From Octopus vulgaris (Eukaryota), in NCBI GenBank assembly GCA_951406725.2, contig OX597825.1:68014001-68078000 (forward strand): a stretch of DNA of 64,000 nucleotides, in the 5' to 3' direction. Shown in pieces: positions 1,599 to 61,100 of the stretch. Numbering within the stretch: position 1 is the first letter of the stretch; each line of letters opens with the position of its first letter. The notes beneath the pieces were generated by a model, which saw nothing but the letters and a program-made list of their open reading frames with translations, did not search any database and had not been told where the DNA came from. The translations under genes were made by a program, and so were the position numbers.

Positions 1599-1714
1599 TA
1601 TATAGAAGGAGCTTATACAGATAACTGTTTCATTCAAGAGAAATCTTCAGGAAGATTTCCTGAAGATTTCTCTTAAATGAAACAGTACTAGTCCTGTATA
1701 ACTCCTTCTATATA
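1599..1714. repeat. Inverted duplication of a hammerhead-core-bearing segment
   Basis: The arm tatatagaaggag...tcttcagga faces tcctgaaga...ctccttctatata. Each arm carries CUGAAGA...GAAACAG. The minus arm has stem III ACAG-uuau-CUGU followed by A. Confidence 0.7.
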
Positions 1715-3209
1715 TATATATATATATATATATATATATATATATATATATATATATATATATATGTATTTATATGTAAAGGTTATGATAATGTTGCTGA
1801 TGATGATAATGATGATATATATATATAAATATACATATATATATATACACATATATATATATATATATATATATATATATACATATATGTATATGTGTGT
1901 GTGCATATGTATATATATATATATATATATATATATATATTTGCCATGTTGGACTGCTGAACTCTACAAGTTTTTTCATTCTCTCTCTGTTTATTTTCTC
2001 CTTTTCCTTTCTGTTGAAGAGCATAGGCTCGAAATGTAAAAGACCTTTTCATTTTTCCCGAGCATCAAACTAACACACTTGTCATTCATACACCTGTCTT
2101 CATCTTTTGTTTTTCTATAAATTTCAACTATATATATATATATATATCGCTAAATTCTCAAGTTTTTTTTTATTCCCTCTCTGTTTATTTCTTCATATTC
2201 CTTTCTGTTGAAGAGCGTAGGCTCAAAACATAAGACTTTCTCACTTTCCTGAACATCAAACTAATACACCTGCTTGTTGTTCATATGGCTCTGTGGTAGG
2301 AAAATGGCTTTCCAACCACATGGTTCCAGATTCAATACCACTACATGGCACCTTTGGCAAGTGTCTTCTACTATAGCCTGGGGCCAACCAAAGCCTTATG
2401 AGTGAATTTGGGAGAGAGAACATGTGCCAGTAAGGCGATGCAGGTAACGATCACGCTCAAATGTTTTTTCACGTGCCACCAGCACAAGTGCCAGTAAGGT
2501 GACGCAGGTAATGATCACGCTCGAATGGTGCATCTTATGTGCCACTGGCATGGAAGCCAGTTTGTTGCTTTAGTAACGATCACACTCGTATGGTACTCTT
2601 AGTGCTCCACTAGCATGGATGGCAGTCATCGAATTTGATTTCAATTTCAATTTCACTTACGTCAACAGGTCTTCGCAAGCAGAGTTTAGTGTCCAATGAA
2701 GGAAAGGTACGCATAAGTGGGCTGGTTACACCCCTGGCATAATAATCATCATCATCATCATTTAGCGTCCACTTTCCATGCTAGCATGGGTTGGATGGTT
2801 CAACTGGGGTCTGGGAGACCAGAAAGCTGCACCAGGCCCAGTCTGATCTGGCAATGTTTCTACGGCTGAATGCCCTTCCTAATGCCAACCACTCCGTGAG
2901 TGTAGTGGGTGCTTTTTACGTGCCACCGGCACAGGTGCCAGACGGGGCTGGCAAACGGCCACAGTCGGATGGTGCTTTTTACGTGCCACTGGCATGGGGG
3001 CCAGGCGAGGCTGGCAGCGGCCATGTTCGGATGGTTCACTTACGTGCCACCGACACTGGTATCACAGCTACAATTTCCATTGATGTTGAAATAATAATAA
3101 TAATAATAATAATATTAATAATAATAAGGATTATTACTATTGTAACATAGGTACTCGTTGCCAATTATGTAGTATCACCACTATTAACAATGATATTTGT
3201 TTAGGCTAT

Positions 3210-3625
3210 ACTCTTTCTCTTTTTTACTCTTTTACTTGTTTCAGTCATTTGACTGTGGCCATGCTGGAGCACCGCCTTTAGTCGAGCAAATCGACCCCGG
3301 GACTTATTCTTTGTAAGCCCAGTACTTATTCTATCGGTCTCTTTTGCCGAACCGCTAAGTGACGGGGACGTAAACACACCAGCATCAGTTGTCAAGCAAT
3401 GCTAGGGGGACAAACACAGACACACAAACATATACACACACACATATATATACACATATATACGACAGGCTTCTTTCAGTTTCCGTCTACCAAATCCACT
3501 CACAAGGCATTGGTCGGCCCGGGGCTATAGCAGAAGACACTTGCCCAAGATGCCACGCAGTGGGACTGAACCCGGAACCATGTGGTTGGTTAGCAAGCTA
3601 CTTACCACACAGCCACTCCTGTGCC
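3210..3625 (-). mobile_element. SINE family A full copy
   Basis: Near-identical reverse complement of 45324-45740. Confidence 0.9.
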
Positions 3626-3936
3626 TATAACAGTGTAGTAACAATAAATATATAAAGATGCAGGGTAACATCACCATAACAATCCAACAAACTCTCCATG
3701 AACTATACACAAACGAACAAACGATATTTTGACAAACTACCAAAATGATACCTTATGACTTCCTGCGATTAACGCCTACTCTTTCACTCAGACTGCTAGT
3801 ATTTATAGTGATTCAGTCAAGTCTATTCTCGCAGGGGGTATCGTAACTCTCGCCACAACAATTACAAAGTTGCATAGCATTATCTTTAATTCTTTTAATA
3901 TATAATAAGCTTTACATAGACCTACACACACATATA

Positions 3937-57835: not shown

Positions 57836-58085
57836 TTTCCCAAAGCTGATGCCAATGGTCCTACTTTATAAACACAATATCTTCAATTCCGCCTCTTCAA
57901 ATAAATCACTTCACATCCGAAAGTGATATGATCACAATTACTGTTTTATTCTAACACAATATTAATGAAGATTAATGAAGGTTTATAGCCTAATGGTTAA
58001 ACACGTTTGGCTCATGAATATAATATCATGGGTTCAATTCCTCTATACATGTATATGTGTGTGTGTGTGTACATACATATATATA

Positions 58086-58173
58086 TATATTCCTGAAGAG
58101 AAAGCTGCAAAATGGACTCCTTATTCAATCCGAATTAGGGACTTTGCAGCCTTCGAAACATATGTAGAAAATA
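58086..58173 (+). ncRNA. Type I hammerhead ribozyme with long stem II
   Basis: uauauuc-CUGAAGA-GAAAGCUGCAAA...UUUGCAGCCUUC-GAAA-CAUAU-GUA/gaaaaua. Stem III is the palindrome ACAUAUGU. Predicted cleavage is after 58166. Confidence 0.75.
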
Positions 58174-61100
58174 ATATAAAGGAATTTTGTTAAATCTTCG
58201 TTCAGCTCCATTTCTTCCTACACTTAATATATAAAACTTCAAATTTCCGCACTAAGGCACGGTTTTTATGCCCCATGGTCGTAACTTCAACTGTGATTTT
58301 TCTGTTGTGATTTTTGCTATCCAGGTATCGGTTATCATTTGAATTATCCATAATAAGATAATTCATTTATCTACTTCAATAACTATATATATATATATAT
58401 ATATGTATGTAGGGAGAATTCACAAAAAAAACAAAAGACAAAGACAGGTGGTGTAGACAACAAACAGAAGTACTAGTATAACACTCGGTAAGTGAAAGTC
58501 TTTAATGTTTCGAGCCTATGCTCTTCCACAGAAAGGAACACAGAAAGAAGAGAAAATAAAGAATGTGTAGTGGCTGACGATCTATCATATATATGACGAT
58601 CTATCATATATATATATGTATATATATATATATATACATACATATATATATATGATATATATTTATATAATATAAATAAATATAATATAATATATTTCTA
58701 ATCAAAACTATCTAATGAATGGGAATGTGAAACTGAGCAACAGTTTTTGTATTATTTTTGCTGCTTTTTAATAAACTATATATATATATATATATATACA
58801 CACACACAAACACACACACATGCACACACACACACACATAGATAAACAAGGCTTTGATTGACCCAGGGCTTTAGAAGAAAACAGATACCCAGACTGAACC
58901 TGAAACTACTTGATTGGAAAGCAAATTTCTTAACCGCACAGACATATCTACACTGATACTATACTCTTTTATTCGTTTATTTGTTTCAGTCATTTGACTG
59001 CAGCCATGCTGGAGCACTGCCTTTAGCTGAGCAAATCAACCCCAGGACTTATTCTTTGTAAGCCTAGTACTTATTCTATTGGTCTTTTGCTGAACCGCTA
59101 AGTTACGGGGACATAAACACACCAGTATCAGTTGTCAAGTGACATTGGGTGGACAAACACAGACACACAAACATATACATACATACATACATACATACAT
59201 ATATGTGGCACGCGTGCCGGTAGCACGTAAAAAGCACCATCCGACCGTGGCTGTTTGCCAGCCTCGTCTGGCACCTGTGCCAGTGGCATGTAAAAAGCAC
59301 CCACTACACTCATGGAGTGGTTGGCGTTAAGAAGGGCATCCAGCTGTAGAAACACTGCCAGATCAGACTGGGCCTGGTGCATCCTTCTGGCTTCCCAGAC
59401 CCCAGTTGAACCGTCCAACCCATGCTAGCATGGAAAGCGGACGTTAAACGATGCTGAGGATGATGATGATGATGATATATATAAATATATATATATATAT
59501 ATATATATATATATATATATATATATATATACGATGGGTTTCTTTCAGTTTCCGTCTACCAATTCCACTCACAAGGCTTTGGTCGGCCCAAAGCTATAGT
59601 AGAAGACACTTGCCCAAGGTGCCACACAGTGGGACTGAACTCGGAACCATGTGGTTGGTAAGCAAGCTACTTACCACACAGCCGTATATAATAATTTTTT
59701 TTCTTTTTATAGGATTTCCCAAGAGTAAATTCTGGTTCAAAGTATCATGATATTTGTAACTTCTTTTGATTTTAAAATTAGAAATATAAAAAAAGAACAA
59801 AATGGAATCAAGGAATGTTTCCAATTGATAGATTTCTGACATAGGGGACAAGGTCAATAGTAACATAAGGAAAGCATGGTTAGTTTTATACTAACAGCAT
59901 ACTCACCCGGCTCACATACTATTTGACTGGTGCACACATTTTATTGATCCCTAGATGATGGAAAATGAAGTCTTACTCGGCATGAATTGAAATCACAATC
60001 ATCATCATCATCATCATCATCATCATCATCATCATCATTATCATCATCATCATCACCACCACCATCATCATAATCATCATCATTGTAATCTTCATCATAA
60101 GTGTTACTAGTTGTGGCGGTTCTGGTTATGGCAGGGTGACGCTGGTGGTGGTGGTGGTGGCAGTAGTGGTGGTGGGGTGAGGGTGGAGTGGTGGCCCGGG
60201 TTTGGTGGTGGTTGTAGTGGTGGCAGAAGTAGTGCAGCCAGTTGTAGTGGTACCGGTAGTAGTGGTGGTGGGTGGGGGTGGGGGTGATTGTAGTAGTGGT
60301 GGTTGTGGTTGTGGTGCTGGTGCTGGTGGTAGTGGATGGGTGGCTATGGTGGTCGTGCTACTGCTGATGGCAACAGTGCTGGTGGAGTGCAATGGTGGTG
60401 GTGGTGGTGGTCATGGTGGTTACGTAGTAGTAGTAGTAGTAGTAGTAGTAGTAGTAGTAGTAGTAGTAGTAGTAGTAGTAGTAGTAGCAGCAGCAGCAGC
60501 AGCAGCAGCAGCAGCAGCAGCAGCAGTAGTAGTAGTAGTAGTAGTAGTAGTAGTAGTAGTAGTAGTAGTAGTAGTAACTGCAACAACTACTCTAACCGTC
60601 TTCCAAATTACCAGTTGGCATAGAGCCTTCAGTACTTCAAGTGTTTGAAGAAGAAAAGAAAACACGCTCACACACACACAAACACACACACAAACACACA
60701 CAGACACACATATACACACACACACACACACAGAAACAAACATTCACACACACACACACAGAGTCACATACAGACATATGTTCACACTCACTCTTGTATA
60801 TGCATACATACATAATACACACAGACAGACTCACATACACAAACACAAAGACAGAAAGACAGACACATAGAGACACACACTTACACACAAATGAGCACAA
60901 ACACATGCACCCAGACGCAAACACCCATACACACACTCTCAGCTATAGAGACATATGTTCACACATACACAGACATATATAGACACCCAGGTATATACAA
61001 ACACACACATGCACACACACACACATTCATACACATGCACACACACACATGCACACACACACACACACACACATGCACACACACACATGCACACACACAT

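Follow-up and report, generated by a model that had tools for sequence, protein, structure and literature searches.

A stretch of 64,000 nt from the Octopus vulgaris genome (GenBank assembly GCA_951406725.2, contig OX597825.1, positions 68,014,001 to 68,078,000 of the forward strand; hereafter the window) carries many short sequences that look like type-I hammerhead ribozymes, which raises the question of what elements they belong to and whether they still work as ribozymes. An initial annotation, made from the sequence alone, had read them as a dense zoo of unrelated families of non-autonomous derivatives of Penelope-like elements (PLEs). We found that the motifs of four families are the hammerhead-bearing 3' ends of PLEs, as those of the remaining families likely are too, and that the most abundant family has U fixed in place of the canonical A at core position 6 (A6U; hereafter the U6 family or lineage), with a sister lineage in which C replaces U at position 4 (U4C). 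Our favored reading, to which we give a probability of about 0.6, is that the U6 motif is a weakened ribozyme that cuts only as a dimer or with the help of the element's protein. The hammerhead zoo itself is a known phenomenon; the A6U and U4C cores fixed in young, intact elements are new. A literature search that covered mostly open text, the figures and supplements of PMC3088659 and of a retrozyme preprint (bioRxiv 10.64898/2026.07.22.740005) being outside its scope, turned up neither a natural A6U core nor these families.

A hammerhead lineage with U at core position 6

The multicopy family had been described as keeping the hammerhead core. Its core is not canonical: it reads CUG-U6-N7-GA followed by an extra A, with T, T, C, A, A and G at position 7 of the window copies. 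The full motif consists of stem I (CUUU/AAAG), the core CUG-U-N-GA, the extra A, stem II (GAGC/GCUC), GAA, stem III (ACGU) and H17. Without A6 the family is a variant and not a canonical member of the type-I hammerheads; it has their other features, namely the remaining core, the extra base after A9, G10.1-C11.1, a palindromic stem III and free N7 and H17. Two window copies have an intact motif with the core CTGTAGA and end in (TA)n (31968..32155 on the minus strand, core at 32090; 39800..39985 on the plus strand, core at 39868). A third lies between TA runs (58405..58590, minus strand, core CTGTGGA at 58531), and the plus strand holds a copy of an older subfamily (1941..2130, core CTGTTGA at 2011) and two decayed copies (2148..2285, core at 2205, with G12 decayed and the 3' side interrupted; 29840..30010, core at 29885, with G8 and G12 decayed). 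The window start cuts a further plus-strand copy, of which the 3' tail is left (1..90; a tail-only match of a hidden Markov model (HMM) at position 3, and a BLAST match to 2065-2145).

Exact copies of the U6 family number 21,577 in the genome, with A6 in only 290, and 95 of the first 100 exact copies listed have U6. Extrapolation from 16 tail matches in a genome sample (80 evenly placed 10-kb stretches, i.e. 800 kb, of the 2.8-Gb, 227-contig genome) gives roughly 56,000 copies. The old subfamily, the youngest subfamily and the tail-picked copies were chosen without the core pattern. U6 is present in 30 of 30 young endonuclease loci (A6 in 0 of 30) and in all 19 visible cores among tail-only HMM matches (4 of the 23 matches have no core), and the old subfamily, picked by its upstream flank, has 82% U6, 12% C6, 5% A6 and 1% G6 (first 100 listed). 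This old subfamily was also the candidate in a search for an ancestral A6 subfamily inside the U6 family; its A6 copies are unplaced in the tree.

Among seven subfamily consensuses, variation in stem I plus core is confined to 2 of 36 columns, N7 with four states and H17 with A, U or C; the other 34 are invariant. Invariant columns make up 1/21 and 53/89 of the two flanks, and the consensuses differ from each other at 10-44 of ~110 flank columns and at 0-2 of the 36 motif columns. The chance that two variable columns fall on N7 and H17 is 1 in 630 (36 columns) or 1 in 120 (16 unpaired columns), by a post hoc calculation. Counts at position 17 in 15,730 exact copies are 10,449 A, 5,021 U, 128 C and 132 G.

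A tree was built from 52 of 58 requested rows (six lacked the pattern), with core positions 4, 6 and 7 masked. It groups the U6 lineage into a single clade (100/100) that leads from old to young as a ladder of ~0.66 changes per column, and the end branches of old U6 copies are near 0.02-0.13. On the calibration given in the text of PMC13282606 (0.09 = 25 million years), branches of this length would put the age of the lineage at roughly 20-30 million years. An alternative register, with a UUGAAGA core in which C3 is changed, was rejected because any of the four bases occurs at its would-be U4, a freedom expected of N7 alone. Metagenome and viral contigs gave 0 matches to U6 patterns. For the young U6 end repeat (L122:6960-7235), 83-100% of sampled words are present in sequencing runs under four organism labels. 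Contigs assembled from seven runs, unlabelled or presumed to be RNA, lack even the known variation at N7 and so bear neither on cleavage nor on U6 in the other three organisms. A YGAGCG block 25-35 nt past the cleavage site (39907-39920 and equivalents; L122:7155-7165) is kept in the U6 and sister lineages. Pairing of this block with the 3' arm of stem II, as a possible anti-hammerhead switch, is conceivable; RNAfold pairs the block elsewhere.

Four families as ends of coding Penelope-like elements

Four families, namely U6, its sister family at 28598 and the families of the motifs at 54174 and 9938 (named here by core position), run upstream into open reading frames (ORFs) for an endonuclease or for a reverse transcriptase (RT) plus endonuclease. 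The initial annotation was right that these are minimal type-I hammerheads of the PLE type with palindromic stem III, and its stem covariation and (TA)n bias also hold; its view of the elements as non-autonomous and invisible to ORF annotation does not stand as the main interpretation, and it missed the fixed core substitutions.

The U6 family and the 28598 sister are the end repeats of intact elements with RT and GIY-YIG domains. Copies of the U6 family have a common 3' end and differing 5' ends, as truncation predicts, and the longest run into a GIY-YIG frame. This frame has 150 scored genome matches, all 98-100% identical and free of internal stops, with open frames of up to 1,202 aa. In 30 of 30 young loci CTGTTGA is found 1.0-1.1 kb downstream of the endonuclease, and full units carry it at both ends. 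These units are ~4.5 kb (L120-L125), single or in tandem, with one ORF for an RT-endonuclease protein of ~1,070 aa (P0001), which matches RVT_1 with 31.5 bits (cutoff 29.6) and GIY-YIG below the cutoff (17.2-21.3 bits; cutoff 22.6). Older U6 subfamilies have endonuclease remnants of their own.

Several features are those of endonuclease-containing (EN+) PLEs: a single ORF with RT and C-terminal GIY-YIG (U6 and U4C families), end repeats (pLTR) and tandem units (~4.5 kb, L120-L125; ~6.2 kb, L391-L392), and inverted 5'-truncated copies with a one-sided tail (four fold-backs in the window, with tails in those at 1650 and 9938). P0001 and the U4C protein P0002 both have a C-x4-C-xx-C motif between RT and endonuclease, as Neptune elements do, so the U6 element appears Neptune-like by this motif, which also occurs in Nematis. 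Homologues of P0001 are widespread (at least 120 listed, including mollusc, urchin and shark records). A (TA)4+ run is found at the 3' end in 19 of 30 U6-family and 27 of 30 sister-family copies, compared with ~10% of random 80-nt windows, and the youngest U6 element itself ends in a short TA stretch.

The 54174 motif is an intact canonical hammerhead with A10.1-U11.1 (54125..54178, minus strand) in the 3' end of a PLE fragment whose terminus is the (TA)n near 53998. It lies ~0.9 kb downstream of a broken endonuclease-like frame (55110..55520, minus strand), which its motifs suggest to be GIY-YIG and for which a Pfam search of the window frames gave no match. Among its relatives, 10 of 29 carry this hammerhead downstream of the frame in the same orientation, and further ones have it inverted. 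In the window copy, a segment of ~500 nt absent from its relatives (54180-54700, minus strand) is inserted between hammerhead and endonuclease frame. The 9938 motif (9856-9944, minus strand) has a long stem II and belongs to a fold-back PLE end (9805..10290); 8 of 25 relatives in this family, the longer copies, reach a similar endonuclease-like frame. For the 8770 family, 1 of 12 loci has an RT plus endonuclease on its opposite arm, which is no more than suggestive of a tie to a coding PLE. Elsewhere in the window, a broken frame at 38740-39102 (plus strand; no Pfam match) contains GLKFTP, presumably a motif of the N-terminal part of PLE reverse transcriptases.

That the window holds mainly non-autonomous, non-coding retrozyme-like elements that borrow PLE enzymes, as first proposed, we consider improbable. 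Most copies are indeed 100-300 nt long without an ORF, and no ORF link was shown for eight window motifs or families (1650, 6860, 14699, 15382, 42331, 52150, 58093 and 58712); for 14699, 15382 and 6860 none was found among the relative loci examined. Some of the eight may be non-autonomous. The 1650 family consists mostly of tiny fold-backs, 10 of 16 with one junction (the query held that junction), and the random sample contains a true retrozyme-like tandem array of 359-nt units (L128). On the other hand, four families were traced to coding elements, two of them intact, the shared 3' and varied 5' ends are what truncation predicts, and no tandem non-coding units were seen for the hammerhead families of the window.

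A sister lineage with C at core position 4

The relative at 28598 is a PLE end with a decayed core (28500..28705, minus strand) whose closest copies are of the U4C subfamily. Its family has 8,862 exact copies; among the first 100 listed, 74 have C4 instead of U4. A looser pattern matches 5,119 canonical A6/U4 relatives, and another count gave 990 canonical sister copies. In the young C4 subfamily, the motif is present in 29 of 30 loci, with tandem units of ~6.2 kb and an intact ORF of ~950 aa. The encoded P0002 is 60% identical to P0001 over 969 aa. No endonuclease link was found in 51 short copies of the sister family; it was found only via the younger subfamily. C4 occurs at two separate places in the tree, and the U6 and sister families differ by a swap of one stem-I pair (C-G versus G-C).

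Is the variant motif a working ribozyme?

The reading of the U6 motif as a weakened ribozyme, active only as a dimer or with protein help, was chosen because published changes at position 6 lower cleavage. A hammerhead with a natural A6C core is weakly active (rate below 0.1 per min) with a preference for Mn2+, and in one engineered case A6C was over 10,000-fold faster in Mn2+ than in Mg2+ (both from the text of PMC3088659 and PMC7151607). Positions 4 and 6 are sites with weakly active natural variants on record (text of PMC3088659), and the text of PMC11167929 describes a lizard PLE hammerhead that cleaves only with the element's protein. The changes across the U6 subfamilies also fit a weakened ribozyme, being confined to the free positions N7 and H17.

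Beside the observed element anatomy, truncation pattern, target bias, fixed core states and constraint pattern, the following mechanism may be proposed. The endonuclease would nick TA runs, and two priming events (two-strand priming) would yield fold-backs and tails, both as in the systems described in the text of PMC11167929 and PMC8557442. By internal priming, likewise modeled on those papers, reverse transcription would start ~130 nt downstream of the hammerhead and usually stop early, which would leave short tails. Selection on source elements would keep the catalytic fold and could tolerate lower activity, since an RNA that cuts itself fast would lose the 3' end needed for reverse transcription.

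Several points weigh against a weakened but working ribozyme. In a complete pairwise mutation scan of one hammerhead (text of PMC9901934), CUGA-turn mutants were all low save a C3-G8 swap, and the lizard PLE inserts in vitro without the need of cleavage (text of PMC11167929). The counts at H17 do not by themselves prove avoidance of G, since G17 is at least as frequent as C17. Most of the subfamily consensuses were made from copies picked by the core pattern, which inflates core invariance, and A6 copies of the oldest layer are unplaced at the base of the tree. The 3' flank is conserved too (53/89 columns), and loop II is invariant although catalysis has no obvious need of it; protein binding may thus conserve the U6 end as a whole. 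Folding predictions favor inactive rods in monomers as well as dimers of both kinds of motif, variant and canonical, and folding energies do not separate the two kinds. In the young U4C element, stem I contains a U-U mismatch, which looks like decay and, if so, counts against catalysis.

The main competing explanation is that the U6 and U4C ribozymes no longer cut and that their fold persists because it serves the PLE protein as a signal for binding or folding, or because it acts at the DNA level within the end repeat. We regard this as possible but on the unlikely side. It is consistent with two sister autonomous lineages (60% protein identity) that each have a different CUGA-turn change, with U4C at two separate places in the tree and a weakened stem I in the young U4C element, with the predicted rod, in which U6 pairs with A15.1 (-10.8 kcal/mol), and with the dispensability of cleavage in vitro (text of PMC11167929). 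The constraint pattern argues in the opposite direction: N7 and H17 alone changed, and did so repeatedly, while C3, G5, G8, A9, G12, A13, A14 and A15.1-U16.1 never changed in seven subfamilies. The rod would pair N7 and free C3, which is the reverse of the pattern observed, and weakly active natural variants are known at just the two substituted positions, 4 and 6 (text of PMC3088659).

The opposite departure from a weakened ribozyme, which we consider rather doubtful, is that the U6 motif is an efficient natural hammerhead despite a core that mutagenesis predicts to be crippled. Rescue would come from the PLE protein, from dimerization or from Mn2+, and the U6-A15.1 rod would keep the monomer inactive. 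If this were true, two sister retrotransposons would have independently made their ribozyme a protein-gated switch for timing RNA processing relative to reverse transcription.

Hammerhead motifs of the window against chance and genome background

The described sequence is present at every position at which the initial annotation placed a hammerhead. A relaxed type-I descriptor (CTGANGA, stems I-III, one mismatch allowed) was run on the window and on 100 block-wise dinucleotide shuffles. It gave 8 matches in the window compared with 0.83 +/- 0.88 in the shuffles, none of which reached 8 (0/100), so the motifs exceed chance under the shuffle control that had been suggested; the strict descriptor gave 2 matches versus 0.08. 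Seven of the eight relaxed matches had been listed before (6860, 8770, 9938, 14699, 42331, 54174 and 58093), and the eighth, at 28166, looks like a chance match. The other check suggested there, with Rfam and Infernal, came out negative: hammerhead models gave 0 matches at the gathering threshold in the window, none were among the best 150 of 211 window matches at E<=1, and none appeared at E<=10 for the motifs at 39868 and 54174 searched alone. Many Rfam miRNA matches in the window were set aside as microsatellite hairpins.

Canonical-core type-I hammerheads (CUGANGA ... GAAA ... NUH with stems I-III, above chance) are those at 8770, 9938, 14699, 54174, 58093, 1650 and 15382. The cores at 1650/1660 and 15382 fail the descriptor, as their stem II opens with U10.1-U11.1, and yet are confirmed at the family level; the same holds for the two motifs at 52150 and 58712, which had been called remnants. 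Relatives with better cores exist for 8770, 14699, 52150 and 58712, and nearly all window motifs are members of multicopy families. The degenerate hammerheads at 6860 (6853..6915, plus strand; only two weak relatives) and 42331 (42291..42337, minus strand; one relative, L142, and a genome search with the window motif that matched only a flanking repeat) are weakly supported.

In the 800-kb sample, the strict descriptor found CTGANGA 19 times (mean of 0.8 in 10 shuffles), CTGTNGA 8 times (0.4) and TTGANAA 3 times (2.0 in shuffles); CTGCNGA and CTGGNGA cores gave 0. Seven of the 19 CTGANGA matches come from one tandem array and one of the 8 CTGTNGA matches looks like chance. Extrapolated from the sample, roughly 65,000-90,000 intact-looking motifs would be present genome-wide. 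With one descriptor for both, the window has 7 matches in 64 kb (one in a microsatellite) and the sample 27 in 800 kb, i.e. a ~3-fold higher density, and the densities of (TA)n runs are equal (9.38 in the window versus 9.46 in the sample per 10 kb). The dense zoo is thus real, with many families, but only ~3 times as dense as the genome sample: the window is a rich yet ordinary slice of the genome.

Chance matches in repeat-rich, AT-rich DNA are an extremely improbable source of these motifs. Such an origin would agree with the lack of Rfam hammerhead matches, with the marginal window enrichment of a relaxed non-A6 descriptor (7 versus 2.9; 5/100 shuffles) and with the weak 6860 and 42331. It is already refuted for all motifs save these two by the window enrichment, by the sample counts (19 and 8 in 800 kb versus shuffle means of 0.8 and 0.4), by covariation beyond 500/500 shuffles and by the fixed position of the motifs in PLE ends.

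Canonical-core families and fold-backs

The families are not all unrelated, as first thought, since the 9938 family is related to that of 58093 and the multicopy family to that of 28598. The 9938 and 58093 families form one group with a long stem II, in which 11 of 28 stem pairs change on both sides (eight hand-picked sequences); 0 of 500 shuffles were as high and slid controls gave 1-4. Together with the stem-I pair swap between U6 and sister families, this bears out the stem covariation noted earlier. The 58093 family is very young, its 40 best copies being 98-100% identical (window copy 58089..58380, plus strand; stem III ACATATGT). The 8770 copy (8743..8900, plus strand) belongs to a multicopy family with a stem III of the ATCGCGAT type. 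The 15382 copy (15330..15470, plus strand) is decayed; the aligned majority of its family (15 loci) has a 6-bp stem I, a 10-nt palindromic stem III and U10.1-U11.1. A stem II that opens with U-U is a variant already on record (text of PMC3088659). The decayed remnant at 58703..58776 (plus strand) has two relatives in L283, one with an intact core.

Four fold-back insertions are found in the window, and in two of them, at 1650 and 9938, one arm has an extra tail. Inverted truncated copies with a tail at one end are a PLE signature (text of PMC8557442 and PMC11167929). Besides the 9938 fold-back, they are an insertion with two inverted hammerheads (1540..1714; cores at 1650 on the minus and 1660 on the plus strand), in which one arm has a ~60-nt tail and TA runs flank both sides, an insertion with a hammerhead on the minus strand (14464..14826; core 14699, motif 14558-14704, stem III ACAGCTGT) and a remnant of a common canonical family that lost the 5' half of its core at the junction (52085..52218). 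In the 1650 family (1640-1670; L432-L447), the fold-back junction lies at the 5' edge of the hammerhead, where four stem I bases match the reverse complement of the core, and is common to 10 of 16 loci, which were picked by a query that holds it. Because both arms carry the same subfamily variant, the family suggests repeated template switching rather than a hairpin element that copies itself.

At L448:520-581, a 1650-family tail and a 58093-family fold-back share one TA run, and different PLE families pile into the same microsatellites. An inverted hammerhead pair with a U3-A8 core variant is found at L145:7650-8200. The L128 array (L128:2300-4560, from the random sample; contig C1, from 20,000,001) has units of ~359 nt and seven identical canonical hammerheads with stem III ACCGGT, five of them in one orientation and two in the other, and looks like a non-LTR retrozyme. 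Other features of the window include a 5S rRNA-like match just below the Rfam threshold (50901-51019, plus strand; 35.7 versus 38 bits), possibly a 5S-derived repeat, and mariner-type transposase remnants (Pfam Transposase_1) at 32912-33627 (plus strand) and 37451-37768 (minus strand). The window is rich in microsatellites, and its long ORFs are mostly microsatellite frames and transposon remnants.

Comparison with known systems

Dimeric PLE hammerheads have reportedly been described by Lunse et al. (2017). According to the text of Cervera and de la Pena (2014, PMC4209133), metazoan genomes, including those of molluscs, each contain thousands of heterogeneous minimal hammerhead ribozymes (min-HHRs) from truncated PLEs. 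The motifs described here share with them the type-I form, the short stem I and palindromic stem III, the extra base between positions 9 and 10.1, G10.1-C11.1, the many families per genome, the mostly single copies from truncated PLEs and the opposite-strand pairs 100-700 nt apart. They differ in the core: the consensus there is CUGANGA, with U3-A8 the sole core variant described in its text, whereas the octopus has a U6 lineage of at least 21,000 copies and a C4 sister.

With Neptune-clade EN+ PLEs, as described in the text of Craig et al. (2021, PMC8557442), the octopus elements share one ORF with RT followed by GIY-YIG, CX2-5CxxC before the endonuclease, hammerhead end repeats, tandem or inverted truncated copies, a one-end tail and microsatellite targeting. 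The core is non-canonical here, and the likeness is one of motifs and element structure. The Anolis Poseidon element PAc (Frangieh et al. 2024, PMC11167929) likewise has an end-repeat hammerhead, an AT-rich target, two-strand priming and a tail; it belongs to another clade, needs C3 and G8 for protein-assisted cleavage, and its text reports no core variant.

Natural CUGA-turn changes with weak but detectable activity are reported in the text of PMC3088659 and PMC7151607 for the Bcep176 A6C hammerhead and a viroid U4C variant. Those are single rare cases, whereas here A6U is fixed through successive subfamilies of an animal retroelement. Animal non-LTR retrozymes (text of bioRxiv 10.64898/2026.07.22.740005) also have type-I hammerheads related to PLE end repeats, but they are non-coding tandem units with a hammerhead each, while the traced window families are ends of coding elements; non-coding tandem units are absent from the U6, U4C, 54174 and 9938 families and were seen only in L128, outside the window. 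Among cephalopods, 235 Rfam hammerheads were annotated in the giant squid (text of PMC6962438), and a 2026 repeat annotation of O. vulgaris lists 31 recently active PLE families, with ribozymes unmentioned in its text (PMC13282606).

Implications

PLE hammerheads cut poorly in vitro, and cleavage is dispensable in one reconstituted PLE (text of PMC4209133 and PMC11167929). The A6U and U4C elements make the role of these hammerheads directly testable, as a natural experiment in which two young, intact sister elements with different catalytic-turn changes exist beside canonical-core subfamilies, with a 44-nt motif in all these families and an intact ORF in the two young ones. Descriptors built on CUGANGA miss the U6 and C4 lineages alike, and the hammerhead-like family that is most abundant here, with at least 21,577 exact copies, escapes both them and Rfam. 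If the U6 motif is active, the hammerhead consensus would be widened; if it is inactive, the fold would be kept for another job.

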